Program-made: the position numbers and the translations under genes
Shown here: piece by piece, positions 13,586 to 26,671 of the stretch
Layout: each line of letters starts with the position of its first letter
How positions within the stretch are numbered: position 1 is the stretch's first letter
The notes under the pieces: generated by a model
What the model was told of the DNA's origin: nothing
The model's database searches: none
Seen by the model: the letters and a program-made list of their open reading frames with translations, nothing else
From: a virus
Lineage: Duplodnaviria > Heunggongvirae > Uroviricota > Caudoviricetes
Virus record (IMG/VR): IMGVR_UViG_3300040801_001810
Span: 166,194 to 230,193 of that record
Length of the DNA: 64,000 bases
Reading direction: 5' to 3' (one strand)

Positions 13586-13600
13586 TAGGTGTTTGTCAGA
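13586..13600 (+). promoter_or_regulatory. conserved intergenic motif A (TAGGTGTTTGTCAGA), copy 1
   Basis: Matches the TA(A)GTGTTNGTCAGA consensus. 32 nt upstream of the 13632 start. Confidence 0.45.
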
Positions 13601-13631
13601 TTTATTCAACTTTATATCCTAGGAGGATATC

Positions 13632-14798
13632 ATGTCACGTAAAGAATTCGTCATAGGTCGTAACAGTGGTCGTAAGTTAGTATTAGAAGGATCTTTAGTT
13701 ATAGGTGCAGTATCTGCCTATACAGATTTTATTATTGATGAGCCTACTGTTGAGTCACGCTGCGCTGGCACTACTGAGGATTTCGGTCCACAACGCTGGA
13801 ATGCACAAGGTGATAAGCTGTCGCAAACTGACGATGATACATGTTGGGTTGATGATAACGGAAATCAGTACTATACAGAGATTGGATCTTATCCTAATGA
13901 GATTATTCTTGATGAAGTGCGTGGATCCTGTGATGCTACAATTGACAGTCCTAAGGCTCGTACATTGCTAAACAGTGATGAACAAGCATGGATGGATGCC
14001 AATGAACATCTTCTTGAGAAACTTTCAGAGGATGATGACACCTGGGCATGTAACGAATATAACGACGAACAGGTTGATTCACATACCAGTTTAGCTAATG
14101 CTAGACATAGTACGAATGCTACTGAGCAGAATAAAGAAGGATATAAGATCTTTGGTACTAACAAGGGTCATGATTCTGCAATATGGGTAGCAGTAAGATA
14201 CTCTAAGCAAGCTACTATCAACATGGTTAAGCGTGTTAAAGAACATCTCAGTACAGATGAACTTGATTACTTGCGCTATATCATACTTGATGACAACATT
14301 TCATTGCCTTCATGTATCCGTACTGTACTCCCTCAGCATAATGCTTACAAATCACTTACATGCTGGCTTAAAACCATCACTACTGGTACGCACTATACAG
14401 CTACTGGTCGTAAGGTTGGATTTACACCATATCCAGCAATGTTTGTCAAAGCACGCAAAGAAATGGAGTTACTCGCACCTAAGCGGGTGCTCCATATCGA
14501 TTACTACCAGCCTACAAAATCCTGCCCAGAAGGTTTCGCTAATATCTGGACAACAAAGGGTGATGTACTCACTGGTACACATCAGATCTGTTTCTTCACA
14601 ACTACTAGCTATCAATCACAGATAGACAGTATCATAAGGAGAGCCAAGGCAGCAGGATACAATATTGTATCAAAGAATGATATGTATAACAACTGTATTG
14701 CCTCAACAGGAAAAACACCAAAGTATACAACAGTACGTACTCTTTGGAACAATCCTATTAGCTATATAGAAGCATCAGTTAAAGTGTTAGTCAGTTAA
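13632..14798 (+). CDS. hypothetical protein (388 aa)
   Basis: Long ORF with RBS ctaggaggatatcATG, preceded by a 390-nt structured leader containing hairpins. Confidence 0.55.
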   Translation: MSRKEFVIGRNSGRKLVLEGSLVIGAVSAYTDFIIDEPTVESRCAGTTEDFGPQRWNAQGDKLSQTDDDTCWVDDNGNQYYTEIGSYPNEIILDEVRGSCDATIDSPKARTLLNSDEQAWMDANEHLLEKLSEDDDTWACNEYNDEQVDSHTSLANARHSTNATEQNKEGYKIFGTNKGHDSAIWVAVRYSKQATINMVKRVKEHLSTDELDYLRYIILDDNISLPSCIRTVLPQHNAYKSLTCWLKTITTGTHYTATGRKVGFTPYPAMFVKARKEMELLAPKRVLHIDYYQPTKSCPEGFANIWTTKGDVLTGTHQICFFTTTSYQSQIDSIIRRAKAAGYNIVSKNDMYNNCIASTGKTPKYTTVRTLWNNPISYIEASVKVLVS

Positions 14799-14897
14799 TT
14801 GGTTCCTTTCATTTGGATGAATTGGTTGGGGAGTATGAGTTAAGTAGATTGGTTCCCTACTAGCTTATACTCCTTTTTTTATTCTAAGGAGATTATC

Positions 14898-15050
14898 ATG
14901 AATAACAACTACAATGAACCCGAACCTGGTTCTGAAGAAGAATACTACTGCGATAATTTTGAATTTTCAGTACAAACAATCAAAGAAGAAGAAGGTCAAA
15001 TAGAAGTAGATAAATGGTTTGCATACCTTGAAACAACTAACAATCGGTAA
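14898..15050 (+). CDS. small acidic hypothetical protein (50 aa)
   Basis: ATG 14898 after taaggagattatc RBS. Stop TAA overlaps the motif A copy at 15048. Confidence 0.4.
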   Translation: MNNNYNEPEPGSEEEYYCDNFEFSVQTIKEEEGQIEVDKWFAYLETTNNR

Positions 15051-15068
15051 GTGTTGGTCAGATAATTG
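15048..15068 (+). promoter_or_regulatory. motif A copy 2 (TAAGTGTTGGTCAGATAATTG)
   Basis: Exact consensus. Confidence 0.45.
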
Positions 15069-15206
15069 AATAGATGGGTTTAAAAGGGTACTGGTAAAAT
15101 AACTAGGCCCTCCCATCACCAATTTTATAACACTTGAATATACTTTTTTACACCTATCAAAGTCAAGTCTAATCACCCAAATACACATACAGTCGCTCAA
15201 ATGCAT

Positions 15207-15227
15207 TAAGTGTTGGTCAGAAAAATG
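15207..15227 (+). promoter_or_regulatory. motif A copy 3 (TAAGTGTTGGTCAGAAAAATG)
   Basis: Exact consensus, 48 nt upstream of the 15275 start. Confidence 0.45.
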
Positions 15228-15274
15228 TCACTTTAGCTATATATCTCTTTCACAACTATCAAAAGGAGTCTATC

Positions 15275-15709
15275 ATGACTACCAATGCACAAGTCTCAGC
15301 CACAGCGAATCGTTTCATGGAAAAGGTTCAGCAGCGTCAGGAAGCTCTTCAGCTCACAGCAGCTCAGAAGCAGGCAAAGATCGACATCGACAAAGAATAC
15401 AAAGACTTCATCGATGTCACAGCAGTTGAACAGCAGGAAATCCAGGATAACTACCAGCTCGCAGTTGTTGCCGCTCAAGAAGTCCTGAAGGAAAGCCTCA
15501 AGGATCTCCACGACAAACGCAAGAATGCCAAAGAGATGCGCATCGAAGAGTATGTCAAAGCAGGTATCGCAAAAGAACACATCCCAGCAACTGATGTAGT
15601 AGCTGTAAAACTCGACAATGCAGCCACAAAGCTCATCGGTGGAGCAGCAAGCTTCTTCAATGATACCAAAGATTATCTCAAGCGTAAGGCCGCAGGTCAG
15701 GTTGGTTGA
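15275..15709 (+). CDS. hypothetical coiled-coil protein, atypically GC-rich codon usage
   Basis: 144-aa ORF with RBS caaaaggagtctatcATG. Gln/Ala/Lys-rich. Local GC clearly above the window average. Confidence 0.5.
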   Translation: MTTNAQVSATANRFMEKVQQRQEALQLTAAQKQAKIDIDKEYKDFIDVTAVEQQEIQDNYQLAVVAAQEVLKESLKDLHDKRKNAKEMRIEEYVKAGIAKEHIPATDVVAVKLDNAATKLIGGAASFFNDTKDYLKRKAAGQVG

Positions 15710-15730
15710 TTGTGTGTGTGTGTCCTCCTA

Positions 15731-15769
15731 AAGGGATTGGGTCTAGAAATAGGCTCAGTCCCTTTTTTT
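15731..15769 (+). terminator. rho-independent terminator
   Basis: AAGGGA...TCCCTT stem followed by TTTTTTTA. Preceded by a (TG)6 run at 15710-15722. Confidence 0.5.
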
Positions 15770-16094
15770 ATGCTTATGAACGGCTTTATGGGTAGGTTGT
15801 GTTGGTTTTAACCTAAATTAGAAGGCACGATGCACATGGCGATTGTAGGTCAGAATGGCCATATTTGAAAAAATCACCGAGAGCGGGAACTTAAAACTAC
15901 CCGTCCATCAACCCGTCCACACTACGGCCCCCGAAGGAGCGAAGCGACTGAGGGGCATAACAAATAAAATAACAAAATAATCACACATATAATAGAAATT
16001 CACAGCTAAAACTACAAATAATACGCATTTATGCGTTAAAACAGTAGGAAAGCCAAGAAATTCACCATATGCGTGAGGAAAATAAAAATTTTAT

Positions 16095-16320
16095 AACAAA
16101 GTACCTAGTACATATAGTATGTATTAACATACCATCATATAACAGGTACACAAACAAAGTACCTAGTAGTCTAGATACATATTAAGTATATAGAATACAT
16201 ATAGGTACACAAACAAAGTACCTAGTACATATAGTATGTAATTACATACAACAGTATACATATATCATAATGATATATTGCTGTGTCCTTCATATAGTAC
16301 ATATAGGTACACAAACTACC
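16095..16320. repeat. iteron-like direct-repeat array (ACAAAGTACCTAGTA x3 and GGTACACAAAC x3; 28-bp perfect repeat at 16096-16123 and 16213-16240)
   Basis: Read directly. Lies in a 560-bp non-coding gap upstream of the 16336 gene. Confidence 0.5.
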
Positions 16321-16335
16321 TATAAGGAGATCATA

Positions 16336-16647
16336 ATGATCACAGTAATAAACAAACGTAATGCTACACCATCCAATGGTATAGTAGTATACATAGGTAG
16401 AGGATCACCACTAGGTAATCCATTTCCAATGAAAAACAATAGTATTCAAGAACGTAACAGAGTATGTGATGAATACGAACAATGGCTAAATAACCATATA
16501 ACATCAAAGACTCCAAGTGTATGTACAGAGCTTAATAGGATATATACATTATCTAAGGATAATAATATATACTTACAATGCTACTGTGCTCCACTTAGAT
16601 GTCATGGTGATTATATTAAGAAGGTTATTAATAATAAAGCCAAGTAA
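16336..16647 (+). CDS. DUF4326-like (NADAR-related) protein
   Basis: MITVINK... after taaggagatcataATG. IVVYIGRGSPLGNPF and LQCYCAPLRCHGDYI match the DUF4326 signature (GRGSPWGNPF ... CHC.P..CH.D). Confidence 0.45.
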   Translation: MITVINKRNATPSNGIVVYIGRGSPLGNPFPMKNNSIQERNRVCDEYEQWLNNHITSKTPSVCTELNRIYTLSKDNNIYLQCYCAPLRCHGDYIKKVINNKAK

Positions 16648-16651
16648 CAGC

Positions 16652-16668
16652 TAAGCTGCGCTGGCTAA
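16652..16668 (+). promoter_or_regulatory. motif B copy 2 (TAAGCTGCGCTGGCTAA)
   Basis: Followed by GCGCTG...CAGCGC hairpin. 36 nt upstream of the 16704 start. Confidence 0.4.
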
Positions 16669-16703
16669 AAGTCATCAGCGCCATCAAATAAAAGGAGCAC
16701 ACA

Positions 16704-16973
16704 ATGCACTTCTTCAAAGGTACCAATAACATAGGTATCCAATTCACTCGTGACAAAGATAGTAAACAGCTATCCATAGCAATAAGAGATGGTAGTCTAC
16801 CAGACAACCTCCCTCTATTTCACAATGTAACCAAGAATGTACAAGTAGATGTATGTATATTCAGAACAATAGAAGACTCAATACCATTAGCACAATGTTA
16901 TCCCTCAGATGAAGAACTAGGAGATATTATATCTCTATTCATTAAAGGTAATACAGTGTTGGGTATTGATTGA
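16704..16973 (+). CDS. hypothetical protein
   Basis: 89-aa ORF with RBS aaaaggagcacacaATG. Confidence 0.45.
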   Translation: MHFFKGTNNIGIQFTRDKDSKQLSIAIRDGSLPDNLPLFHNVTKNVQVDVCIFRTIEDSIPLAQCYPSDEELGDIISLFIKGNTVLGID

Positions 16974-16981
16974 TCAATTAT

Positions 16982-17006
16982 TAAGCTAAACTGCACTGGC
17001 TAATAC
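16982..17006 (+). promoter_or_regulatory. motif B variant copy 3 (TAAGCTAAACTGCACTGGCTAATAC)
   Basis: Variant with CTGCACTGGC. Confidence 0.35.
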
Positions 17007-17027
17007 AATCATAAGGAGAATTAACTC

Positions 17028-17618
17028 ATGAATCCAACTAAAGAAGAATACGCTGTAGACTTCACTCAGTTAAAAACAGTATCACAATTATCATCAAAGA
17101 TAACTAAAATTGTACCACCAGAAGAAATAATAAGGCTAGCAGACGAAGGATATATTACATCATTCAGAATAGCCACTCCAAAAGGACATATTGCATCAGA
17201 TGAATATTTATTCATGCAACCATTACTTCAAACAGAAATACAAGAACGTCTATTAGTAGAAACAAAAGCACCTGAAATATTACATCTTCACACAGGAGAT
17301 AATAGGACATTTAATGTCCCAGAAGAACTTGGACAGATGATACCTGCTATTTATGAAATGGATATATCATATCCACCAGCAGTATATTTCCTTGTGAAAG
17401 ATAATAAAGTAGTATATATAGGTCAAAGCATAAGATTAGCTTCTCGTATATCACAACACTGGCAAGAAAAAGATTTCGATAGAATACTTTATATACCAGT
17501 ACCAAAAGAGAAGTTAAATGTTATAGAAGGAGCATTAATTAATCATTTTAAACCAGAACTTAATTCAACTGTTCCTAAGTTATACAATGAATATCTTAAA
17601 GAAGTATTACTAAGCTAA
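17028..17618 (+). CDS. GIY-YIG domain protein
   Basis: C-terminal VYFLVKDNKVVYIGQSIRLASRISQHW...F matches the GIY-YIG core (Y..xxxGxxYIG..., R, H/Q). RBS cataaggagaattaactcATG. Confidence 0.5.
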   Translation: MNPTKEEYAVDFTQLKTVSQLSSKITKIVPPEEIIRLADEGYITSFRIATPKGHIASDEYLFMQPLLQTEIQERLLVETKAPEILHLHTGDNRTFNVPEELGQMIPAIYEMDISYPPAVYFLVKDNKVVYIGQSIRLASRISQHWQEKDFDRILYIPVPKEKLNVIEGALINHFKPELNSTVPKLYNEYLKEVLLS

Positions 17619-17640
17619 GCTAAGCTAAGCTAAGCTACGC
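17612..17640 (+). repeat. tandem pentanucleotide repeat (TAAGC)x5
   Basis: ctaagctaagctaagctaagctaagctacgc spanning the stop of the GIY-YIG gene, immediately upstream of motif A copy 4. Confidence 0.6.
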
Positions 17641-17661
17641 TAGTGTTAGTCAGAAAAATAC
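17641..17661 (+). promoter_or_regulatory. motif A copy 4 (TAGTGTTAGTCAGAAAAATAC)
   Basis: Consensus with A at the variable position. Confidence 0.45.
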
Positions 17662-17694
17662 AATAATTCACCACATAATACAAGGAGTCACACA

Positions 17695-18006
17695 ATGAAG
17701 AAGCTTATCGTTATCACAGTATTGGCAATATTGGTATCAGCTATAGCTATAGTATCAATCAAAGCCACAACCAAGATAGACCTCCATGAAATGACAAGCA
17801 CACATCATGTATTTGGATACTATCCAACTATCAAACACAGAATAGAAAGAATACCAACAAAGGTATTAGTTATTCCAATTGATTCAACCACAGGTAATTA
17901 CATATATAACCCTTCAAAGGTAACATTTGCTAAGTATTTAGCACTATGTGTAGTAGACACTAACATGTTTAGTGTTAAGGGTTATTATGAGTATACCAAC
18001 AAATAG
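17695..18006 (+). CDS. secreted/membrane-anchored hypothetical protein (N-terminal signal or TM helix)
   Basis: MKKLIVITVLAILVSAIAIVSIKA hydrophobic N-terminus. RBS caaggagtcacacaATG. Confidence 0.45.
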   Translation: MKKLIVITVLAILVSAIAIVSIKATTKIDLHEMTSTHHVFGYYPTIKHRIERIPTKVLVIPIDSTTGNYIYNPSKVTFAKYLALCVVDTNMFSVKGYYEYTNK

Positions 18007-18024
18007 TGTTGGTCAGAATGATAC
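18004..18024 (+). promoter_or_regulatory. motif A copy 5 (TAGTGTTGGTCAGAATGATAC)
   Basis: Exact consensus. Confidence 0.45.
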
Positions 18025-18044
18025 ACAATTAACAAGGACATCCA

Positions 18045-18233
18045 ATGGCATCAGTCATAGTATCACATACAACAATAGCTATGGTTAAAGTAGAATTAGG
18101 TATACCTGATGATTGCTTAACCATATCAGATGAAAACATCAGAGAATTCATAGTATACAATGGTATATATGAACCTGATTTCAAATATTGGAATATGGTA
18201 CAGGAACTATGGGATGATTGGATGAGTAAATAA
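18045..18233 (+). CDS. hypothetical protein
   Basis: 62-aa ORF with RBS aacaaggacatccaATG. Confidence 0.4.
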   Translation: MASVIVSHTTIAMVKVELGIPDDCLTISDENIREFIVYNGIYEPDFKYWNMVQELWDDWMSK

Positions 18234-18248
18234 CAAGTAATAAGACAT

Positions 18249-18259
18249 GCTGCGCTGGC
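18249..18259 (+). promoter_or_regulatory. motif B copy 4 (GCTGCGCTGGC)
   Basis: 17 nt upstream of the 18276 start. CTGC-GCTG-GCAG mini-hairpin. Confidence 0.4.
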
Positions 18260-18275
18260 AGTAAGGAGAGCCAAG

Positions 18276-18551
18276 ATGAACAATGTAATTGGATTTAAAC
18301 AATGTTCTATAAGAACACCAGATTTACAGTGGCATAAAGTATGCACAACTGTACTCAAATCTGAAACAAACAATCGAAAATTCATGATTGTGAGTCAAGG
18401 AGCAAAAGCTACTCTTATCGTCACAGAAGTAGATCAAACATATATTGTTTCATCTATTAGCCAAGCTGATGCTAAGCTTACAGCAGAAAGATTTGAAGCA
18501 ATCATGTGTGAATGCCAAAACATTCCAATGCAAGTAAATCATAAGTGTTAG
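18276..18551 (+). CDS. hypothetical protein
   Basis: 91-aa ORF with RBS gtaaggagagccaagATG. Its TAG stop lies inside motif A copy 6. Confidence 0.45.
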   Translation: MNNVIGFKQCSIRTPDLQWHKVCTTVLKSETNNRKFMIVSQGAKATLIVTEVDQTYIVSSISQADAKLTAERFEAIMCECQNIPMQVNHKC

Positions 18552-18562
18552 TCAGATAATTC
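18542..18562 (+). promoter_or_regulatory. motif A copy 6 (TAAGTGTTAGTCAGATAATTC)
   Basis: Consensus. Confidence 0.45.
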
Positions 18563-18578
18563 ATAAGGAGAATCCGCC

Positions 18579-18752
18579 ATGACAGCACTAGATTCAATCA
18601 AACAAGATCTCAATGAAGTAGAGAGTACAATTAAGATACTCACTACTAATAACAATCATCCTGATGTACTACCAAAATGGATAGAATTAAGAGAACGCCT
18701 TAAATCACAGTACACTCAGTATATAGGAGCACATTGTGAAAGTTCCAATTAA
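18579..18752 (+). CDS. small hypothetical protein (57 aa)
   Basis: ATG 18579 after cataaggagaatccgccATG. Below the ORF-track length cutoff. Confidence 0.4.
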   Translation: MTALDSIKQDLNEVESTIKILTTNNNHPDVLPKWIELRERLKSQYTQYIGAHCESSN

Positions 18753-19071
18753 TACCCCTGGAGGTATAGTTACTCTTGATTGTCTTGAATATACTACTAG
18801 ATTTATCTGTCCAGATAATGAAGTATATATTGTTAACATCGAATTTAATGACATGCTTGAAGGATTTAAAAGACTACAAGCAGGAGCATTAATACAAGAT
18901 GCATTTCCAACATTAGACGCTAATGCAAGAGAAATACTTATCTCTGGCACAGGCCCTAAAGCTTGGGATAAACTATTTCCACCAGAAGAAACACCATACT
19001 CTCCATTCGAAGATCCAATCGAATATCATGAGAGTATTGCAGATATTACTGAAGAAGACAAAATCGAGTAG
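18736..19071 (+). CDS. hypothetical protein
   Basis: 111-aa ORF with GTG start in the track. Overlaps the previous small gene by 17 nt. Confidence 0.4.
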   Translation: MKVPINTPGGIVTLDCLEYTTRFICPDNEVYIVNIEFNDMLEGFKRLQAGALIQDAFPTLDANAREILISGTGPKAWDKLFPPEETPYSPFEDPIEYHESIADITEEDKIE

Positions 19072-19224
19072 CTGATAAGGTACGAGTGACCTACTTGAGG
19101 CTACTACAAATGGGCAGGTACAAGTGGCTATCGAAGCGCATTAGCGTGGAGGTCAGATAATAGAGATGGAGGCATAAGCCCTAGAAGTCTGCTATTATAC
19201 CTGTCCTATATATTTAACTCCTCC

Positions 19225-19602
19225 ATGAATGGAGGTTGGGAGGTTGACATGCTTTGGATATTAATCATTGGTATATCAATGGCAATAATTTCAGGTGGAT
19301 TCTGGGTACTAGAATTCAATGAAGGCTTTCAAGCACTCAGATCAATACCAATGCCACAACGCACATTCAATCCATTCAAAGCGGTATCACAATCTGTGAT
19401 GTATCTATTATCAACCATTGCTGCACTATTCAAGTTTTGGAAACTTGTATTAGATGTAGGAGCTACCATATGGTTAGCTGGAAGCTTTGGCTTCAGTGGT
19501 ATGATAGGAGGTGTAATTGGTTTAACAGTTAGTAATGTTATATCAATATACCTCATATCAATACAACCAAAGGGGGGAGGTCAACGTGTTGCTTTCTCCT
19601 GA
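19225..19602 (+). CDS. small multi-pass membrane protein
   Basis: 125 aa with 3-4 hydrophobic helices (WILIIGISMAIISGGFWVL..., ...LAGSFGFSGMIGGVIGLTVSNVISIYLI). Confidence 0.45.
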   Translation: MNGGWEVDMLWILIIGISMAIISGGFWVLEFNEGFQALRSIPMPQRTFNPFKAVSQSVMYLLSTIAALFKFWKLVLDVGATIWLAGSFGFSGMIGGVIGLTVSNVISIYLISIQPKGGGQRVAFS

Positions 19603-19738
19603 AGTAGTTAAATTCATAGAAGAGGAGAGCCAAGTATCTCAAGAGATACAAGAAGTATTTGAAGAAGAAACTAAACTATCTTCTACTCGCTCTTCTAAAA
19701 AACCATCAATGGACGCTCAAGAAGGAGATCTATCATGA
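19535..19738 (+). CDS. hypothetical acidic protein
   Basis: 67-aa ORF. Start uncertain because it overlaps the membrane-protein gene. Confidence 0.3.
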   Translation: MLYQYTSYQYNQRGEVNVLLSPEVVKFIEEESQVSQEIQEVFEEETKLSSTRSSKKPSMDAQEGDLS

Positions 19739-19959
19739 TACTTGGAAAAGATGTACTCAATGCAGATGATAAGCGAATAAATATAGCTAACAAGGCTTAT
19801 TTTATTCAGATGCTTATCCTTGAAGCTCGAGGTCCCAACTGCTGTATCACAACTGAGGACATGTCAGAAGATGGAGATACATTCACATGCAATAAGTGTG
19901 GACGTAAGTGGGAAGTGGTCACATTTGAGCACAGTACCAAAATGATCTGTGTAGGCTAA
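19735..19959 (+). CDS. hypothetical protein with C-terminal CxxC
   Basis: 74-aa ORF with ATGA start/stop overlap with the previous gene. Confidence 0.4.
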   Translation: MILGKDVLNADDKRINIANKAYFIQMLILEARGPNCCITTEDMSEDGDTFTCNKCGRKWEVVTFEHSTKMICVG

Positions 19960-19964
19960 GACAA

Positions 19965-19976
19965 GTGTTAGTCAGT
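19965..19976 (+). promoter_or_regulatory. motif A copy 7 (GTGTTAGTCAGT variant)
   Basis: AAGTGTTAGTCAGTTCAAT, ~37 nt upstream of the ssb start. Confidence 0.4.
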
Positions 19977-20012
19977 TCAATATATCCACCTTATTACCTT
20001 TGGAGGTAAGAA

Positions 20013-20357
20013 ATGTCTTCAGTTAACAAGGCCATTATCATTGGCAATCTTGGCGCAGAACCTGAACTCAGGAAAACACCAGGAGGAAAGTCAGTAGCTA
20101 ATTTCAATGTAGCTACAAATGAGTCCTACACTGATAGTGATGGACAGAAGCATGAGCATACAGAGTGGCATACAATTGTCACCTGGAACAAGCTCGCAGA
20201 GAACTGCTCGCAGTATCTCAAGAAGGGCAGTAACGTCTACGTTGAAGGACGTATTCGTACACGCACATGGGATGATCAAGAAGGCAACAAGCACTATCGC
20301 CAAGAGATCATCGCCGCAGAGGTCAGATTTCTCGATAAGAAACCATCTGACCAGTAA
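20013..20357 (+). CDS. ssb: single-stranded DNA-binding protein (OB fold)
   Basis: MSSVNKAIIIGNLGAEPELRKTPGGKSVANFNVATNESY...TEWHTIVTWNKLAENCSQYLKKGSNVYVEGRIRTRTWDDQEGNKHYRQEIIAAEV aligns block by block with bacterial/phage SSB. RBS tttggaggtaagaaATG. Confidence 0.85.
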   Translation: MSSVNKAIIIGNLGAEPELRKTPGGKSVANFNVATNESYTDSDGQKHEHTEWHTIVTWNKLAENCSQYLKKGSNVYVEGRIRTRTWDDQEGNKHYRQEIIAAEVRFLDKKPSDQ

Positions 20358-20384
20358 ATGTTGGGTAGGGTTGTGCTCAGCTTA

Positions 20385-20410: not shown

Positions 20411-20554
20411 TCTGCTGAACACTCCTACTGTACCACTACACCTTAATCACGGTATACACCATGTTAACAACAAAAGATTGGCCGTTTATCGTCCTACTTT
20501 GTGCAATAATACTCGTTGTGTATTCGTGGGAGCTTATATTCAAGGAGGACAGCA

Positions 20555-20845
20555 ATGATCCTACGGTTAGCGGACAGAGCATCCAGTCCAGCAATAGCAA
20601 TGATGCTGTTGGCAGAGTTCCACATCAAGAACGGAACAATGCAACAGAGGGTAACAGCTCGTCAGATACAGCAACGATGGATCGACAGAGCACGGATTCA
20701 TTACTCTCAATTCAGGAGAAAAGAAACAGCTCAGGAAAAGAAATTCAGAGAGAATCTCAATGATCAAATAGCTGAGCGAAAAAAACTCATGAATAGAGTA
20801 TCTCGATATGCAGCTAAACAAAGAGCATTAGCAGGTATACAATGA
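20555..20845 (+). CDS. hypothetical basic protein
   Basis: ATG 20555 preceded by ttcaaggaggacagcaATG (perfect SD), in frame with the track ORF 20516..20845. Overlapping alternative-frame ORF 20461..20763 considered less likely beyond its first ~30 codons. Confidence 0.45.
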   Translation: MILRLADRASSPAIAMMLLAEFHIKNGTMQQRVTARQIQQRWIDRARIHYSQFRRKETAQEKKFRENLNDQIAERKKLMNRVSRYAAKQRALAGIQ

Positions 20846-20919
20846 ATTGGTTATTTGTTCCACCAATAACTATCGTTGTGTATCTATTAACATGTGCAAT
20901 ATATAACCTATGGAGAAAG

Positions 20920-21169
20920 TATGGCTAAGTTAAAGATTAGAAAGAATGATAGCCTACTTACTATCAAGGTTGAAGATAATACACGATTGATACTCAATTT
21001 ACAGTGTATCAATATTGCTCATTATCATTGTACAATGTTTGCAGTACAACAATCACTTCGTGGTATTCAAGGAGACACATCACCTATTACAATTGGAGTA
21101 CAGTATGCCAAGAGTCAAATGTATCAGAACGAAAGCTTATCCAGGAGCACAGACAGACCCAATACTTGA
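20920..21169 (+). CDS. hypothetical protein
   Basis: ATG after ctatggagaaagtATGgct, in frame with the track ORF 20894..21169. Confidence 0.35.
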
Positions 21170-21302
21170 GCGTGGTATGTTCTACGATGTAATCGGTGAA
21201 GAACCATCTCTTGCTGATCCTACTCCAATGCTTATTGTCCAGAGAAAAGGACAACAGATAACTCGACCACGTTGTATGTTTGGTAAAATACTTATTAATT
21301 AA
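21105..21302 (+). CDS. hypothetical protein (overlapping frame)
   Basis: MPRVKCIRTKAYPG... after attggagtacagtATG, in frame with track ORF 21015..21302. Overlap with the preceding call is unresolved. Confidence 0.3.
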   Translation: MPRVKCIRTKAYPGAQTDPILERGMFYDVIGEEPSLADPTPMLIVQRKGQQITRPRCMFGKILIN

Positions 21303-21311
21303 GGATTTATT

Positions 21312-21596
21312 ATGATTAAAAGACTATTTAAATTCATTAAGAATGTAGCTATGGCCGCATTAAATACTCTAAAAGATTTTGTACAGGATATTGTACAGAA
21401 TGCAGAGTCAACTGTGATTCTAATTACTTCGGCAGTTGGTGTCACAGCTATACTCACAGAGTTGCCTTTTCATTATGCTTTACCTGCTATTATCGATGCT
21501 CCTCTAGCAATTCCTGTACTTAGTACATTTATTGTACTAGGACTTATTACTTTGATGCAATATAGGTTCCGTTCTTTTTCTGGTTATCAAGTTTAG
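21312..21596 (+). CDS. small membrane protein
   Basis: 94 aa with two hydrophobic helices. Confidence 0.4.
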   Translation: MIKRLFKFIKNVAMAALNTLKDFVQDIVQNAESTVILITSAVGVTAILTELPFHYALPAIIDAPLAIPVLSTFIVLGLITLMQYRFRSFSGYQV

Positions 21597-21619
21597 AAAG
21601 GATTTGAAGATTAGTATAT

Positions 21620-21925
21620 ATGACTTCGTTTAAACCAAATTCATTAAGAATTCAAAAGTATTCAGCATTTGCTCAAGTAGCAATAATAGGAGTACCAAAA
21701 ATTAATAGATCGTTTAGCTATTACTTTACTCCTAGAGGTAAAAAAACTTTATCAAAGATTCGAAATGCTCTTATTGAACAAAAGAAACCTGTTCAATTTA
21801 TAGCAGTAGAACTTTTAATTAAGAATAATTCAACATTATTTGATGATGAAATGAAACGTATATTTTGTAATATGTCCGCTGATAATTATCGTCAAATAAA
21901 AGTTCGCTATGGGAATAATACTTAG
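21620..21925 (+). CDS. hypothetical protein
   Basis: 101-aa ORF. Confidence 0.4.
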   Translation: MTSFKPNSLRIQKYSAFAQVAIIGVPKINRSFSYYFTPRGKKTLSKIRNALIEQKKPVQFIAVELLIKNNSTLFDDEMKRIFCNMSADNYRQIKVRYGNNT

Positions 21926-21933
21926 GAGGATGA

Positions 21934-22263
21934 ATGAAAGCATCATGCACATGGAGTGAAGCAGAAGATGTATGCATCGAACTTGATGGTACAGAATTAA
22001 TGTTATTTGAACCACCATCAAAGTTTGAAAGATTCAAAGATGGTATAGTTTCAAAAGGACAAATAGCATTGAGTGCTAATGATGCTATTGAGCTTGCATC
22101 ACAATTACAAGCAGCAGCTATAACTGCACAGGAACTTGAAGAAGGATATGCTAAGGCTTGTGATGAAGATGCATTGAAAGATCAAGAAATAGCATTACAT
22201 GAATCAGGGGTATTACGTTATGACGATCATGACCAACACATCAATAGGACTAATCAAGGGTAG
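21934..22263 (+). CDS. hypothetical acidic protein
   Basis: 109-aa ORF with RBS taggaggatgaATG. Confidence 0.45.
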   Translation: MKASCTWSEAEDVCIELDGTELMLFEPPSKFERFKDGIVSKGQIALSANDAIELASQLQAAAITAQELEEGYAKACDEDALKDQEIALHESGVLRYDDHDQHINRTNQG

Positions 22264-23971
22264 AAATACTTTTCTTGATTTTAGTCCTGGACTTGTACAA
22301 TTAGTTAAGCTGCGCTGGCTAAGACGAACAATACATGCAGTTGCAGTAGGAAGGAAAAGTTATGAAGTACTTAAAGGCACAAAAGGGATTACTGATGTGC
22401 TTGGTTCTACTATTGCCAATAGTCTTCTTAGGACTACAACGAATAGGTTTAGAACTCTCACAATCTCAGCACATAGAGCTGCCACTATCAATAATGTTGG
22501 GCTTAGCTTACGTGGGCTGGGTGCTACTCGTCGTATTCCAGTTGGACCGATGCATACAGATAGCAAAGGAAGAGTCGTCAAAGAAATTAGAATTATGTAT
22601 CACGAAGCCAATAGAGCAGGAAAACATCTCGACATCCACATTGGTAGTCAATCGCTCGTTATGCGAATCGATGGCAAACACGTTGCTACAACATTATCCT
22701 ATGGAAAAGATGGTAAACTCACAGAAAGAGCTAAGCGATCTCTTATTCAACATGTTAAACGAGAAATAACTAATAACTCAAGAGTAGTGCACAATCATGA
22801 TCATACAGTAACTAACGCTAGATGCTCATGGCTTGATCCAATTAAAGAAGGATATGGTTCAGGTAAAACTCGTCAAACTGTACTTGTTGATAAAGCAGAA
22901 TTGTATCACCCTCAACTTGAAACATCACAACATTGGTATATTCCAAGCTTATTCCCAAATCAAGGAACATACATACACAAAATATACCCTGGATCTAAAA
23001 CTACCGCACCAATACTTATTTGGGGCAAGCTAATACCAAGGGATGTAAAGTTTGAGGATAGATTACATCTTAAAATGATTCAACCAGAGGATATAACGAA
23101 GTATATCTCAACAATTGACCCATCAACAAACACAAGGAAATATGATGGAGCATCAGCCTATTTCACCACAAATGGTATCGGGTTCAAATTCTTCTCACCA
23201 AGATACTCGAAGGACACAGGACATAGAATTGAGTACACTTACAAGGTACCAGAGTTCTGCTTCCCACCAAATTACTGGTCACGAGGATTACATTCACGAA
23301 TTAGCCAAGCAACAGGGATGGGAGAACTCCTCTTCTGGAAACGAACTACAAGTGGTAAGATACTCCACGCCATGTTCAATATCAGAGGCCCTGAGAATTG
23401 GTGTTGGAATTATATCCCAGCAGCAAGCATCGGAGGAATCTTAAATGGACATTCAGTTCGTTCACGATCCATTATGCCAGAGCTACGGATCTATAGAATT
23501 GACAGTCTCAATGGAACAAGGACGATTAATCTACCCTTCCATGAAAATCGCATTCTCCAGACAAGAGTTGCCTCTTCTAACAACGTCAATGTCAAAGTCG
23601 TGGCTCTCAGCAGCACCAAAAGACGAACCGACTGGGAGGGTTTTGTTGGTGTTCCCTACAACTCAAGCATCATTTCAGGGCTTAAGATCAAATGGTGGGG
23701 AGATACCAATGATTGGAGAGTAATAGCTAATGAACTCAGTCTCTCACCAAAAGGAAATATCCAAGGAACTCTCAGATTTAGAAGTTTGGAATCTGGAAGA
23801 GAATTCAAACTTGGGCCAGGCTCCATTGGTTCATTTGACGAGAACATGCGACTGCTCGATATGTCGCAAACAGCACAGGATCTTGTTGCTAAAGTTCAAT
23901 CTCGAAATGGCCATGAAGGAAGAGCAGCTAAATTAGTTGAATGGCATTTATGTAAGGGAATAGGTATTTGA
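22199..23971 (+). CDS. ATP-dependent (DNA/RNA) ligase-like nucleotidyltransferase; start codon uncertain
   Basis: Motif I RKYDGASAYF (KxDG), motif III-like MGELLFW, motif IV-like WEGFVGVP, motif V-like SGLKIKW in the order typical of covalent nucleotidyltransferases. Long N-terminal extension. Possible true start GTG ~22393 or ATG ~22549. Confidence 0.5.
   Translation: MNQGYYVMTIMTNTSIGLIKGRNTFLDFSPGLVQLVKLRWLRRTIHAVAVGRKSYEVLKGTKGITDVLGSTIANSLLRTTTNRFRTLTISAHRAATINNVGLSLRGLGATRRIPVGPMHTDSKGRVVKEIRIMYHEANRAGKHLDIHIGSQSLVMRIDGKHVATTLSYGKDGKLTERAKRSLIQHVKREITNNSRVVHNHDHTVTNARCSWLDPIKEGYGSGKTRQTVLVDKAELYHPQLETSQHWYIPSLFPNQGTYIHKIYPGSKTTAPILIWGKLIPRDVKFEDRLHLKMIQPEDITKYISTIDPSTNTRKYDGASAYFTTNGIGFKFFSPRYSKDTGHRIEYTYKVPEFCFPPNYWSRGLHSRISQATGMGELLFWKRTTSGKILHAMFNIRGPENWCWNYIPAASIGGILNGHSVRSRSIMPELRIYRIDSLNGTRTINLPFHENRILQTRVASSNNVNVKVVALSSTKRRTDWEGFVGVPYNSSIISGLKIKWWGDTNDWRVIANELSLSPKGNIQGTLRFRSLESGREFKLGPGSIGSFDENMRLLDMSQTAQDLVAKVQSRNGHEGRAAKLVEWHLCKGIGI
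22304..22325 (+). promoter_or_regulatory. motif B copy 5 (TTAAGCTGCGCTGGCTAAGACG)
   Basis: Lies inside the 5' end of the 22199..23971 track ORF. This suggests the true start of that gene is downstream. Confidence 0.35.
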
Positions 23972-24012
23972 CTTTCTCATATTTTCAGTATATACATTAA
24001 AAAAGGACAGCT

Positions 24013-24546
24013 ATGTCTAGAAAAGATAAGTGGATCATATTAATGATAATAATTGCTATATTTGTGGGTATAATTGAGTTATATATGAACTCAAAGAAAC
24101 CATATATAGCAATTCCAGTCAAACCAGATTCTATTCAAGTTGTAATAGATACTATTACATCTAATGGCACATCTATAGTAAAAGAACCAGTGCCTGAACA
24201 TGTTATCACTGAAATTAAGCTACCTACTATAATATCTCTTCCTATAAAGAAAGAAATAAAAGATACTGTTATGAGTTATCATGACTCAATTAATAGTATG
24301 TTTGAACATATTATAGGTGTAGTAGATACACCTAAATCATCACCATGTATTGGTACAACGAATCTAAAAGGTAAGACAGTATGTGTTGGTATGTCAACAA
24401 AAGAAGTATTTAAACTATGGGGGTATCCCAGTATTAGAAAGAAAGCAACCAGAAGATTTCTTGTTCATGAATTATTTATTTACAATGATATTAGGTTGTA
24501 CTTTCATAAGGATACTCTTGCCTTAGTTTCATCACCAATCAGATAA
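24013..24546 (+). CDS. membrane-anchored hypothetical protein
   Basis: 177 aa. N-terminal WIILMIIIAIFVGIIELY TM helix. Confidence 0.45.
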   Translation: MSRKDKWIILMIIIAIFVGIIELYMNSKKPYIAIPVKPDSIQVVIDTITSNGTSIVKEPVPEHVITEIKLPTIISLPIKKEIKDTVMSYHDSINSMFEHIIGVVDTPKSSPCIGTTNLKGKTVCVGMSTKEVFKLWGYPSIRKKATRRFLVHELFIYNDIRLYFHKDTLALVSSPIR

Positions 24547-24624
24547 CTGGTCGCAATTTGCGACCTCAACAAACATACTGTGGTGTATTTATTATTTTCT
24601 ATACAATAGCTATAAGCTATAGAA

Positions 24625-25065
24625 ATGGGTGTGGGTATGAAAATTATTAAAAAACCTAGCACATTTATTCCAGAGAATGAAGATTGCCCAATAAGTAAAA
24701 CATTAACATCTGTTAATTGTGATACTAATAAAGCATACATATTAAATGATGCTGGATTTAAGAAACAATTTGGTAATTATTGGGAAGAAATCAAAAATAC
24801 ATGTACTAAATTTTGTCAAGAAGTAGGAAAGCGTTATCCAAATGGTATATCAGAATATGATTTAGATAAGTATTATTATAATATAATGTGTGTTGTACTT
24901 AATGATACATTAAGAAAAAAAGGAAGAAAAACAATAGAAAGAATCATTAATACTATATTCTGTGGTGATAAATGGGAATCTTTAAGATTAAGATATAAAA
25001 TAGTACTTCTTGGTGAAACACACGGAAATACAAAGATTAAAACACGCAAGGAGAGCCAAGGATAG
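24625..25065 (+). CDS. hypothetical protein
   Basis: 146-aa ORF. Confidence 0.4.
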   Translation: MGVGMKIIKKPSTFIPENEDCPISKTLTSVNCDTNKAYILNDAGFKKQFGNYWEEIKNTCTKFCQEVGKRYPNGISEYDLDKYYYNIMCVVLNDTLRKKGRKTIERIINTIFCGDKWESLRLRYKIVLLGETHGNTKIKTRKESQG

Positions 25066-25120
25066 CCATTGAAACACTTTTATAACTATTTGTGTTATAA
25101 CTCAAAGCAAAGGATGAAAG

Positions 25121-25624
25121 ATGCTTAAACCAAACCTCAGAAAAGAGAAAATCATGGCAGCTAAACCTGAAATTGGTGATCTTGTTGAAGACAAAATCTC
25201 AGGATACAAAGGTATTGTATCTGATATAACAGTATTTGTAGCTGGCTGTGAACGTGTAGGTGTTAAATCACAAGAACTACATGAAGGAAAACTTATCGAT
25301 ACTTGTGTCTTTGATTCTCCAAATCTTAAGGTTATTAAGAGTAAAGTAATTACACCAAAAAAGACTAAGAAACAAAAATATAAACTTGGTGATAAACTTA
25401 AATGTAAACTCACTGGATATACTGGTGTAGCTACATCAATGACAGAAAGTATATCTGGTACTAGACGTTTTGGCATATCACCACAAAAGATTCAAGAAGG
25501 AAAGCCAATAGATGGATATTCTTTCAACGAAGAACTTGTTGAACTTGTTAAAGAAGAAATTCACAAACCAGAAAAAAGATCACGTACTGGTGGAGATCAA
25601 GTAGTACCAAGATCTGCATTCTGA
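25121..25624 (+). CDS. hypothetical protein with internal tandem duplication
   Basis: Two related ~60-aa repeats (GDLVEDKISGYKGIVSDIT...GVKSQELHEGKLID / GDKLKCKLTGYTGVATSMT...GISPQKIQEGKPID). KOW/SH3-like small barrel guess. Confidence 0.45.
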   Translation: MLKPNLRKEKIMAAKPEIGDLVEDKISGYKGIVSDITVFVAGCERVGVKSQELHEGKLIDTCVFDSPNLKVIKSKVITPKKTKKQKYKLGDKLKCKLTGYTGVATSMTESISGTRRFGISPQKIQEGKPIDGYSFNEELVELVKEEIHKPEKRSRTGGDQVVPRSAF

Positions 25625-25636
25625 AGGAGAGCCGTA

Positions 25637-25906
25637 ATGAAACAGTTTCTTATTATTCTTTCTATTTGTTGTGTGTTTGGGTGTCAAGCAACAAACCCAA
25701 CATCAGCGATCATAACTCCTGATACATTGTATACTCCTGCTGTTACATCAGAAGGAGATACAACAGACTTATTCTGGAGATCAATTATAACGCCAACTGA
25801 CACAGCAGTAGCTATTGTTGATAGTACTGATAGTGTATTAGTTGATATACCACAAAAAGACGAAATAGACTGGGATTGTCTGCTTCGAATAACCTGCATC
25901 GAATAG
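25637..25906 (+). CDS. putative lipoprotein
   Basis: MKQFLIILSICCVFGCQA signal peptide with lipobox-like FGC. Confidence 0.4.
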   Translation: MKQFLIILSICCVFGCQATNPTSAIITPDTLYTPAVTSEGDTTDLFWRSIITPTDTAVAIVDSTDSVLVDIPQKDEIDWDCLLRITCIE

Positions 25907-26214
25907 GAGAATTGATGGGTGATTTCAAGGGTACTGTACAGGTAAGGGATACTCTACAGTACACTGATTTTGTGTTTGGGCCACAATCACTGATAACTGG
26001 TAAAGAACTATTGCTAATTGACTTTGACGAAGACACCTGTGATTGCATGTGGAGTTATACTGGTATTGTCAAGATTGACATTCGTGACATTAAGAAAATT
26101 AACCACAATATACTTGTAAATCCCAACAAGTATCTCCATGAAATGAACAACGACGAAACAAGGGAGTTAGTTCAAGAATGGATAGCTAGAAAAACAATAA
26201 GGAAGGAGGAATAA
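25876..26214 (+). CDS. hypothetical protein
   Basis: 112-aa ORF. True start probably the internal ATG (MGDFKG...) after aggagaattgATG. Confidence 0.4.
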   Translation: MSASNNLHRIGELMGDFKGTVQVRDTLQYTDFVFGPQSLITGKELLLIDFDEDTCDCMWSYTGIVKIDIRDIKKINHNILVNPNKYLHEMNNDETRELVQEWIARKTIRKEE

Positions 26215-26286
26215 TGAGACTAGAGGGAAACTAATCCATCATCACACTATAGTACAGGAGGAAAACAAAAATCAAAGGAGTTTAAT

Positions 26287-26655
26287 ATGGACTTCTCGAC
26301 TATTGCTTCAGAACTAAATACAGAGAGAAGAACATCAAAACGTCCTGGCTTTAAAAGAAATAAGCGAGGATTATTGCAGAAAACGATGCGTGCAATGTTG
26401 TCACTCAGGACAGCAGAAGGGATTAAACCGCTTGGAAATGGTTACGTTTGTTACGCAGATCAAGATCCAAGAGAGGATAGACCAGAAGCTGAATTGATAA
26501 GGTCCCATGTCTGGAGACAGGAACAAGTAGGAGAGTTATGGGCCTTTTTCAATGGAAAGACTTTTCCACTTGCTTCGGTCTGTCCTTCAGGATCAAGAAA
26601 CCTCAATAGAGGTTTTATCACACAAGGAGGACAATCAGTTGTCATAGATCTTTAG
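26287..26655 (+). CDS. hypothetical protein, GC-rich codon usage
   Basis: 122-aa ORF with RBS caaaggagtttaatATG. Composition resembles the 15275 gene. Confidence 0.45.
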   Translation: MDFSTIASELNTERRTSKRPGFKRNKRGLLQKTMRAMLSLRTAEGIKPLGNGYVCYADQDPREDRPEAELIRSHVWRQEQVGELWAFFNGKTFPLASVCPSGSRNLNRGFITQGGQSVVIDL

Positions 26656-26671
26656 TGTTTGTCAGATTAGG
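26653..26671 (+). promoter_or_regulatory. motif A copy 8 (TAGTGTTTGTCAGATTAGG)
   Basis: Overlaps the stop codon of the 26287 gene. Confidence 0.45.

Follow-up and report, generated by a model that had tools for sequence, protein, structure and literature searches.

The stretch of DNA analysed here, a 64-kb window, is part of a novel phage of about 230 kb that belongs to a large uncultured clade, within which a hallmark protein has 107 homologues, their contigs measuring 190–250 kb and coming from many environments. Between 13.6 and 26.7 kb the window holds nine copies of a short motif, motif A (GTGTTNGTCAGA), all on the plus strand, with GTGTT cores starting at 13589, 14784, 15051, 15210, 17643, 18006, 18545, 19965 and 26655. 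A preliminary description had listed eight of these, each of which is real and is found where it was placed, its numbers referring to a TA(A) prefix and not to the GTGTT core; the ninth, at 14784, had been missed. The copies are dense just past a divergent junction and the last precedes a DprA-like gene, while none occurs in the 37 kb that follow or in L089. The distribution of motif A is class-specific and conserved.

Motif copies and their neighbours

All features described below lie on the plus strand, and related loci are designated by L numbers. The first copy (TAG GTGTTTGTCAGA, 13586–13600) is followed after 31 nt by the ATG of a 388-aa gene and has orthologues at 334 in L002, 1745 in L003 and 1463 in L085. 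A conserved non-coding RNA-like element lies directly 5' of it. The second copy (AAA GTGTTAGTCAGT, 14781–14795) is embedded in the final codons of that gene's 388-aa ORF (13632–14798), upstream of a canonical intrinsic-terminator-like hairpin at 14829–14881 (18-bp stem at 14829–14874 plus U7; MFE −31.9 kcal/mol, z = −2.7) that itself stands 16 nt 5' of a 50-aa ORF. Its orthologues are found in frame before a TAA (L002, 1533), with the motif's own TGA serving as the stop codon (L003, 2928) and past the stop (L085, 2698), an assortment showing constraint on the nucleic acid and not on the protein. The 50-aa ORF ends on the TAA of the third copy (TAA GTGTTGGTCAGA, 15048–15062), and what follows is no gene; it is a conserved hairpin (15073–15117), possibly a short RNA or 5' leader, whose stem reads GAUGGG/CCCAUC here and, by compensatory change, GAUGAG/CUCAUC in L002. 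Beyond this hairpin the fourth copy (TAA GTGTTGGTCAGA, 15207–15221; orthologue at 1614 in L002) precedes by 53 nt the ATG of a 144-aa gene (15275–15709), whose unit is closed by a strong intrinsic terminator at 15730–15772 (16 pairs, then a T-run). The unit from 14885 to 15775 accordingly has a canonical terminator on each side, and the only conserved candidate signals inside it are two motif copies.

Farther downstream, the fifth copy (CTA GTGTTAGTCAGA, 17640–17654) lies 40 nt before the ATG at 17695, with a (TAAGC)5 repeat on its 5' side. The sixth (ATA GTGTTGGTCAGA, 18003–18017) overlaps the TAG stop of the ORF at 17695–18006 and is followed after 27 nt by the ATG at 18045, and the seventh (TAA GTGTTAGTCAGA, 18542–18556) contains the TAG stop of the ORF at 18276–18551 and precedes the ATG at 18579 by 22 nt. 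The eighth (CAA GTGTTAGTCAGT, 19962–19976) precedes the SSB gene (20013–20357), with 36 nt to its ATG, and an orthologue, TAA GTGTAAGTCAAT, occupies the position upstream of SSB in L090 (791). The ninth (TTA GTGTTTGTCAGA, 26652–26666), with a counterpart at the matching place in L090 (7641), overlaps the TAG stop of the ORF at 26287–26655; between it and the DprA-like gene come first a weak T-run hairpin and then an ORF of 33 codons.

These placements bear on several features previously ascribed to the motif. A position 25–95 nt before a start codon applies to six of the eight copies originally listed, the exceptions being 15048, which has a hairpin and then the next motif copy downstream, and 26653, with about 100 nt to the 33-codon ORF. 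Many copies do touch or cover the stop codon of the gene before them, and the TA(A/G) prefix often is that stop; the prefix also occurs away from any ORF end (at 13589, at the orthologues of this copy and at 5186 in L085), which makes it part of the element and not merely a borrowed stop codon.

A scan of the window allowing at most one mismatch to GTGTTNGTCAGA returns 10 matches against 0.89 expected, a number reached by none of 100 shuffles. The tenth match, GTGTTCGCCAGA at 30320 on the minus strand, scores below 10 bits and looks like chance; a weight matrix built from the nine copies gives these 26–32 bits and nothing else above 10 bits on either strand. At three mismatches the count equals the chance expectation (62 vs 61.9), so that no halo of degenerate copies surrounds the strong ones. 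Strong copies occur only on the plus strand and only at gene boundaries, as the preliminary description had maintained, the newly found copy at 14784 meeting its boundary from inside the 388-aa ORF. With a padded intergenic fraction of 27%, the probability of nine out of nine is 0.27^9, or about 7e-6.

The full element is a single block of about 16 nt, TTAAGTGTTNGTCAGA, with a T-purine step 5–6 nt beyond it. Across 21 aligned copies from four sequences, information content is limited to positions −4 to +12, and no second conserved block appears to 40 nt upstream (no −35-like element) or downstream to +42. T occupies the fifth base past the block in 21 of 32 copies (P ~3e-5) and a purine the sixth in 26 of 32 (P ~1e-3), both values to be read with the copies not being fully independent. 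The distance from motif end to start codon is 19–57 nt in 14 of the 21 copies from the four sequences, and the gap to the Shine-Dalgarno sequence is at least 9 nt. The motif is not palindromic.

Conservation and co-evolution in related phages

Metagenomic relatives keep the motif at orthologous sites between flanks that have diverged, with amino acid identities of 75% for L002, 55% for L003 and 31% for L085. Its sequence changes by lineage, with the version GTGTATGTCAAA in L085 and L090 and AAATTTATGTCTGA in L095. In the window, L002 and L003 together, the core reads GTCAGA in 14 of 15 copies and GTCTGA in the other, and in L085 and L090 it is GTCAAA or GTCAAT in all nine; TTATGTC(T/A)GA occurs 8 times in L095 against 0.31 expected. 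Altogether 32 copies align as AARTKTWNGTCWRA, with GTC invariant in 32 of 32. Concerted, lineage-specific change of this kind is the pattern of co-evolving polymerase/promoter pairs, such as those of T7, T3 and SP6.

The relatives also show how the motif is placed with respect to terminators, filling the gap from a canonical terminator to the next ribosome-binding site. In L002 the motif at 2178 directly adjoins a terminator with a 13-bp stem and U6 and leaves 19 nt to the ATG; in L095 a terminator precedes the motif at 6415, with the ATG 26 nt on, and a second terminator lies 140 nt 5' of the motif at 5511. Between some terminators and the next ribosome-binding site, the motif is the only conserved sequence.

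The motif is real, confined to gene boundaries, and both conserved and co-evolving in related phages. The comparisons show that it is a nucleic-acid signal under selection, specific to one strand and linked to the starts of genes. The earlier proposal of either a promoter or an RNA processing signal holds to that extent, and the choice between its two halves is one of weight.

Candidate readers and comparison with known systems

Scans of about 75 ORFs with Pfam and PHROGs detect no RNA polymerase or sigma factor gene in the 64 kb of the approximately 230-kb genome that the window covers, and within the same 64 kb no T7-type RNA polymerase (RNA_pol PF00940; motif C, HDS) is found. Signatures of the beta-prime DFDGD type and of T7 motif C were likewise not found in the window or the clade loci, nor were split beta/beta-prime-like subunits in the window or in the roughly 0.45 Mb that the clade loci span about the early region. 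The early region of one relative encodes a 64-aa protein with a match to Sigma70_r4, a helix-turn-helix fold.

Among characterised signals, the promoters of the T7 group (T7, T3, SP6, K11) offer an architectural parallel. They too are contiguous, asymmetric blocks of about 16–23 bp with an A/T-rich 5' end (TAATA in T7, TTAA in motif A), a lineage-variable internal stretch and A/T-rich bases before the start, and they are repeated before many genes on the coding strand, in some cases without a preceding terminator and possibly with 5' hairpins in the transcript. The T7-like arrangement of one block of about 17–23 bp at the start fits motif A, with information from −4 to +12 and the T-purine step, the putative start, at +17/+18. 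Unlike the T7 group, motif A has no conserved G-rich initiation sequence and no sequence similarity to those promoters, and it belongs to a jumbo phage, not a 40-kb podovirus, with no T7-like polymerase gene found in the window.

The core recalls a different class, that of ECF sigma-factor promoters, whose −10 element has a GTC or CGT core. The E. coli sigma-E −10 consensus is TGTCAAA, and the variant in L085 and L090 contains exactly this; more generally, the invariant GTC of motif A is followed by A-R-A, and the candidate start lies 5–6 nt past the hexamer. The −10 element of ECF sigma factors is G−12 T C−10, with the C flipped out by sigma-E (PMC7598289). In motif A, by contrast, the conserved AAGTGT abuts the core, there is no information from −5 to −40 in the 21 copies where ECF promoters require a GGAAC-type −35 element 16–17 bp upstream, and no ECF or other sigma gene was found in the window.

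The early motifs of the phiKZ and AR9 virion RNA polymerases are computable upstream of early operons, lie near −10 and are phage-specific (PMC7598289). Motif A resembles them in position and repetition and in its similar density among small genes near one end of a gene block. It differs in composition, theirs being A/T-rich and about 10 nt long and motif A having 5–6 G/C in 12 bases around a GTGT..GTC core, and, as noted above, neither split subunits nor the DFDGD signature were found in the window or the clade loci.

T4 MotA/AsiA middle promoters, a case of the sigma appropriation earlier suggested for motif A, likewise have a phage-specific box before delayed-early genes; in them the MotA box at −30 is paired with a sigma-70 −10 element 11–13 bp downstream. 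No such −10 element is conserved here, and motif-to-ATG distances of 19–22 nt leave no room for one, so that motif A does not fit a MotA-dependent middle promoter. Nor does it fit a host sigma-70 promoter (TTGACA, 16–18 bp, TATAAT), for want of bipartite conservation, for a gap that shrinks to 19 nt and for a count of sigma-70-like matches in the region of 52 against 69 in shuffled sequence.

Promoter and alternative readings

With moderate confidence, and from sequence patterns, we read motif A as a promoter peculiar to the phage, made of a single block whose GTC core resembles a −10 element, and served by a phage-directed polymerase. The promoter would be a contiguous stretch of about 16 bp, TTAA-GTGTTN-GTCAGA, driving the early or else the delayed-early genes of the phage as one temporal class. 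Transcription would probably start at the purine after the conserved T, 5–6 nt 3' of the block, a spacing at which the invariant GTC would cover roughly −11 to −9, much as a −10 element does. The reader may be a phage-encoded polymerase or a host polymerase retargeted by a phage factor; an unmodified host enzyme of the sigma-70 type would not be expected to recognise the motif. Promoter action on DNA, the start position and the nature of the polymerase are inferred. The promoter reading is favoured by the single block of about 16 nt, the T-purine step, the order of terminator, motif and ribosome-binding site in the relatives and the length of the recognised stretch; we know of no ribonuclease with so long a recognition sequence. 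Counting against a promoter, copy 14784 lies upstream of the canonical terminator and copy 26655 upstream of the weak T-run hairpin, where any transcript initiated would run straight into a terminator, unless the polymerase disregards such signals. Contig ends from related samples, considered as possible transcript 5' ends, are uninformative owing to selection bias.

The failure to find a polymerase or sigma gene in the window, together with the copy that faces a canonical terminator, makes RNA processing the main rival, although we consider it unlikely. In polycistronic early transcripts the motif would then be cleaved or bound by a sequence-specific ribonuclease or RNA-binding protein of phage or host, which would cut at cistron boundaries or remove 3' terminator hairpins and so time mRNA decay, in analogy with T7 RNase III sites and T4 RegB. 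Strict sense-strand placement at cistron boundaries, often over the upstream stop, where the signal would be ribosome-free, suits such a signal as well as it does a promoter, and the location of 14784 between stop and terminator and of 26655 between stop and weak hairpin would be that of a 3' UTR. The conserved hairpin stands between two copies spaced by 159 nt (by 81 nt in L002), and cutting at both might free it as a small RNA. The window is rich in genes of RNA metabolism (CCA-adding enzyme, RlaP, tmRNA, tRNAs). Yet a linear stretch of 12–16 nt with no conserved structure is longer than any ribonuclease site known to us: RegB recognises GGAG, MazF and ToxN 3–7 nt, and RNase III and Cas6 hairpins. 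A site of the RNase III or Cas6 type was rejected, there being no conserved stem-loop; hairpins lie 3' of only about one third of the copies and share neither sequence nor distance. Moreover, no conserved complementary partner was found, the T-purine step is typical of start sites, and directly 3' of canonical terminators in L002 and L095 read-through RNA would be scant. The order of stop, motif and terminator at 14784, and weakly at 26655, resembles the cro-nutR-tR1 order of lambda, and a hairpin 3' of some copies gives a boxA-plus-boxB-like appearance, as expected if a nut- or put-like RNA or DNA motif loaded a factor that lets polymerase pass early-region terminators. We judge this highly improbable: most copies lack a downstream hairpin or terminator, nine copies in 13 kb far exceed the need of a processive antiterminator, and copies 3' of terminators make no sense in such a role. 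Lambda nut and T7 RNase III sites do resemble motif A in lying just past stops and sometimes before a terminator or hairpin, but they are defined by hairpins (boxB, the RNase III stem) and motif A is linear; a lambda-type nut site was rejected on the number of copies and on a boxB-like hairpin mostly absent and otherwise at variable distance.

Two further proposals address DNA. The motif could serve mainly as a crossover point for small gene cassettes, since the window has, relative to L002, about 270 bp of additional sequence, comprising the terminator and the 50-aa ORF, whose ends are copies 14784 and 15051, each followed by TAATTG, and gene content between copies varies among the window, L002 and L085. 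We give this little credence: microhomology comes with any repeated promoter, as reported in like kind for T4 early-promoter stem-loops, and is better seen as a consequence, while a cassette boundary leaves the fixed orientation, start-codon distance and concerted sequence change unexplained and no recombinase is associated with the motif. Equally hard to credit is an operator at which a phage repressor or activator would act on host-type promoters. A weak −10-hexamer likeness follows some copies (GATAAT at 15061 and 18555) and the 64-aa protein might supply the regulator, but the motif lacks a palindrome and a −35 or −10 partner conserved at a fixed distance, sigma-70-like matches are fewer than in shuffled sequence, and the shortest motif-to-ATG gaps are too small for a downstream promoter.

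Beyond the promoter reading as such, it is conceivable, if doubtful, that the AARTKTWNGTCWRA family is the promoter of a transcription apparatus with no recognisable relative, given that around the early region of this widespread clade of phages of about 200–250 kb neither a polymerase nor a sigma factor nor a known appropriator is found. Such an apparatus might read a −10-like GTC without a −35 partner and run through host-type intrinsic terminators, and the order of motif, terminator and gene would be a switch between host and phage polymerase. Equally, the family might be the target of a ribonuclease with an unprecedented linear specificity of 12–16 nt.

For phages beyond the reach of culture, phage-specific promoters are the way into the programme of gene expression. 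Here one short motif marks the early or delayed-early class of a large, wholly uncultured jumbo-phage clade, and with its help the early regions of related metagenomic contigs can be annotated. To judge from the invariant GTC core, the recognition module is sigma-like or else novel. The lineage versions are a natural set of specificity variants, and such polymerase/promoter pairs would be useful expression tools if they prove orthogonal.

Distribution and anatomy of motif A

In a novel clade of jumbo phages, motif A, a repeat of about 16 nt that precedes genes of the early region, functions as a signal in early gene expression. With one mismatch or none, its core, GTGTTNGTCAGA, has 10 matches in the window against 0.89 expected, a count reached by none of 100 shuffles, and nine of these matches lie on the plus strand between 13,589 and 26,666. 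A weight matrix built from the nine motif A copies gives them 26-32 bits and everything else, on both strands, 10 bits or fewer; with three mismatches allowed, the core is found as often as chance predicts (62 versus 61.9). The set of copies is thus sharply bounded, unlike the tail that a composition effect would leave. All nine (core starts 13589, 14784, 15051, 15210, 17643, 18006, 18545, 19965 and 26655) sit at gene boundaries.

The eight copies listed in the preliminary description, which placed them by their TA(A) prefix, are all present; the list was incomplete, the copy at 14784 having been overlooked. Its placement of the copies shortly upstream of a start codon holds for six of the eight (37-68 nt from the motif start) and fails at 15051 and 26655, where, as at 14784, a hairpin comes first downstream. 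The overlap with stop codons that it reported is real, in that TA(A/G) doubles as a stop, and is only part of the picture: the prefix also occurs away from any ORF end (in the copy at 13589, in the three orthologues of that copy, and at 5186 in the related locus L085), so TA(A/G) belongs to motif A and its use as a stop codon is secondary.

When 21 copies (the window plus three relatives) are aligned, a single, non-palindromic information block emerges, T T A A G T G T (T/A) N G T C A (G/A) A, which occupies -4 to +12, with no conserved base beyond it to 40 nt upstream or to +42, save a weak T at +17. The motif end lies 19-57 nt from the start codon in 14 of the 21 copies, and the Shine-Dalgarno sequence is at least 9 nt from the motif in every case. 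The genes point leftward as far as 11,913 and rightward from 12,181 on. Motif A spans the rightward block's first 14.5 kb, where small ORFs with strong Shine-Dalgarno sequences are numerous; a weight-matrix scan found none in the following 37 kb of the window. Searches of the searchable literature with the motif strings returned unrelated primer sequences only. Just before the copy at 17643, a (TAAGC)5 microsatellite (17610-17637) separates it from a GIY-YIG endonuclease-like gene (17028-17618).

The window itself is a piece of a novel jumbo phage. Megablast and blastn against 50,697 phage records gave no nucleotide relatives, tblastn of its 590-aa protein (22199-23971) against phage records gave no match, and its closest protein matches are remote. 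It carries a tmRNA (61162-61531; Rfam, 122 bits), 11 Rfam-confirmed tRNA genes between 9768 and 56496 (12 by ARAGORN), and genes for a CCA-adding enzyme (52370-53758), RlaP (48507-49322), YqeY (38444-38893), NAPRTase (41686-42855), NAD synthase (43100-43993), an SSB and a DprA-like protein.

Some features of the early region stand apart from motif A. In the divergent intergenic region (11914-12180), the leftward genes have a sigma-70-like promoter close to consensus (TTGACA, 18 nt, TATATT), and AAAAATTATTTGAGATT occurs twice. Four motif-less genes open the rightward block; one of them, a 47-aa zinc-ribbon ORF (12527-12670), is 77% identical in DNA to L085, a conservation far above that of its neighbours, and its product is a candidate immediate-early regulator. 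Beyond a terminator at 15730, a non-coding stretch (16090-16335) contains tandem repeats (GGTACACAAACAAAGTACCTAGTA ... TATAGTA) that yield three sigma-70-like matches (TACACA, 18 nt, TATAGT or CATAAT), which may be host-type early promoters. The sequence TACACAAAC is also found ahead of Shine-Dalgarno sequences at 12780 and 16308.

Related phages and lineage-specific boxes

Homologues of the 388-aa protein (gene 13632-14798) led to loci L002 (75% identity), L003 (55%) and L085/L086 (31%). In L002 and L003, motif A is exact at orthologous sites while its intergenic surroundings have diverged. Where the 388-aa gene ends, the motif copy precedes TAA in frame in both the window and L002, supplies the TGA stop in L003 (GTGTTAGTCTGA) and lies past the stop in L085; because it is kept in frame, as a stop or after one, the constraint is on nucleic acid and not on protein. 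L085 carries six copies of a GTGT(A/G/T)NGTCAAA variant in 6.8 kb, against 0.01 expected, and L090, a 24.6-kb contig from the same sample, adds three. One of these, GTGTAAGTCAAT, is directly upstream of the SSB gene and orthologous to the window copy at 19965 (GTGTTAGTCAGT; SSB at 20013-20357), and another precedes the DprA-like region, its counterpart in the window being 26655. A further locus, L089, is limited to sequence downstream of the 664-aa gene and lacks the motif, as does the window there. Anchoring on SSB retrieved 80 IMG/VR loci, unrelated temperate-phage-like contigs in which the motif is absent, and the 664-aa and DprA-like proteins retrieved no loci as search anchors.

The same relatives share a structured non-coding element directly upstream of the first motif A copy (13290-13530, core 13395-13530), almost invariant in the window, L002, L003 and L085 next to a protein of 31-75% identity. 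RNAalifold predicts 57 pairs, 21 with compensatory changes (e.g. AAUCCC/GGGAUU to AGGCCC/GGGCCU). The element has no Rfam match, its covariance model, run on 30 sources, found it in the window only, and a search of viral, metagenome and genome collections for its core as a DNA pattern gave no matches; we consider it a candidate for a new phage ncRNA. One arm of an internal hairpin (13367-13383) resembles motif A (CTGTTAGTCAGA in L085). Pairing of the first motif copy with the 5' part of the ncRNA, as proposed by RNAalifold, was rejected, showing no covariation and being disrupted in L003. A second motif, GCTGCGCTGGC, G/C-rich in an A/T-rich genome, has five exact copies against 0.04 expected, all on the plus strand (12763, 13759, 16655, 18249 and 22309). 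Three lie in intergenic gaps closed by a Shine-Dalgarno sequence, which follows 4 to about 25 nt downstream, and two lie within coding sequence, the intragenic copy being kept in L002; an RNA element and a Chi-like site are both possibilities.

A large clade of uncultured phages has the 590-aa protein as a hallmark, its 107 homologues lying on contigs of 190-250 kb. The protein has no Pfam or PDB match; K-x-D-G, E-G-x-V and K-x-K motifs in its alignment suggest that it may be an ATP-dependent ligase-like nucleotidyltransferase. Three contigs encoding it sit in public MAGs labelled Bathyarchaeia, Omnitrophota and Iamiaceae, probably through binning error.

Motif A proper is absent from 61 further clade loci (L094-L154) retrieved with the 590-aa alignment. 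One 228-kb phage among them (L095/L134, 42% identity) has eight coding-strand copies of TTATGTC(T/A)GA against 0.31 expected, seven of them within 2 kb just past a 412-aa gene with weak similarity to the 388-aa gene. When 32 copies from four lineages are aligned at their GTC, the shared pattern is A A R T K T W N G T C W R A, in which T-5, T-3, G0, T1 and C2 never vary. A sister lineage without motif A (L084/L091) uses a TAAACATTTCA box likewise: its copies (L084 10958-11864 and 13490; L091 6719 and 6767) follow stop codons and precede start codons by 14-40 nt, two of them ahead of the SSB gene. This box appears to be an analogous signal of different sequence. Since these lineage-specific boxes are used alike, the kind of signal is old and clade-wide, its sequence changing in concert within each lineage.

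Promoter reading and its rivals

On balance, motif A is probably a phage-specific single-block promoter. Such was one of two readings in the preliminary description, the other being an RNA processing signal, and the former is favoured here because motif A is one asymmetric block, lies on the coding strand at a short and variable distance before start codons, is confined to one gene block and has a lineage-specific sequence. Further support comes from the bases that follow: base 5 after the block is T in 21 of the 32 copies (P about 3e-5) and base 6 a purine in 26 (P about 1e-3), the copies behind both values being related. A pyrimidine-purine step is usual at transcription start sites, and a start at this T-purine step would place GTC at about -11 to -9. 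The order of terminator, motif and gene also supports a promoter. In L002, a 13-bp stem with U6 abuts the motif at 2178, with an ATG 19 nt beyond the motif, and in L095 the motif at 6415 comes after a terminator and 26 nt ahead of an ATG; no other promoter site is available to the genes behind. Likewise, the window unit 14885-15775, flanked on each side by a canonical terminator, contains two motif copies as its sole conserved signals.

Copies that precede terminators bear on the principal rival, an RNA cleavage or binding site. The copy at 14784 is followed 33 nt on by an 18-bp hairpin with U7 (14829-14881) and then a 50-aa ORF (14898-15050), while the hairpin behind 26655 is weak and has a T-run. 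A promoter facing a terminator requires a polymerase that ignores terminators or an arrangement akin to an attenuator. Under any model, expression of the 50-aa ORF needs read-through, only 16 nt separating the U-run from its ATG. An RNA site accounts for these copies and for the location at stop codons, and would account for release of the conserved hairpin between 15051 and 15210 (15073-15117; L002 1556-1598), an ORF-free structure with compensatory base changes and possibly a short phage RNA (about 80-160 nt). Harder to reconcile with an RNA site are the copies right behind terminators, the start-like T-purine step and a linear specificity of 12-16 nt, and we regard this rival as unlikely. 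A nut-like antitermination site would suit one or two copies only and is very improbable.

Slighter still is the chance that the motif is primarily a recombination boundary, a role that is real as a by-product. A cassette of about 270 bp, comprising the terminator and the 50-aa ORF (window 14796-15062), is extra relative to L002 (1545-1560), and its ends are exactly the copies 14784 and 15051, each then followed by TAATTG; the repeats therefore act as crossover points for gene gain and loss. Equally little probability is given to an operator for a regulator of host-type promoters, for which there is no conserved partner element. The 19-57 nt before each gene are too short for another promoter, which rules out a sequence-specific terminator. 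A mini-ORF (GTG TTG GTC AGA TAA) was rejected, its lengths varying from 4 to more than 30 codons with no Shine-Dalgarno sequence ahead. The contig L088, equivalent to 13621-14850, begins 21 nt past the motif and ends within the terminator; these ends were discarded as evidence of transcript ends and are uninformative, since contigs were selected for encoding the whole protein and one of 1.2 kb that does so must end near the gene boundaries.

Candidate readers of motif A

The sigma-E -10 consensus is TGTCAAA, the exact form present in the L085 variant. Motif A likewise has a GTC core followed by A-R-A, and G-12 T C-10 has been noted for the -10 element of ECF sigma factors (PMC7598289). ECF promoters are defined by a -35 element, which motif A lacks, so this likeness is a hint and not family membership; it hints that the core may be read by a sigma-2-like module or something convergent.

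Pfam and PHROGs identified no polymerase or sigma gene among about 75 ORFs of this 64-kb window of a genome of about 230 kb, and regular expressions for polymerase catalytic signatures found none in the window or clade loci. PDB sequence searches with the 590-, 664- and 564-aa proteins gave no polymerase or sigma match, nor did Foldseek against the PDB find a fold match for a mediocre AlphaFold model (pLDDT 61) of the 664-aa protein. A 64-aa protein with a Sigma70_r4 match, encoded in the early region of one relative and not seen in the window, is a lead as a candidate reader. Any real novelty would lie in the polymerase or factor that reads motif A.
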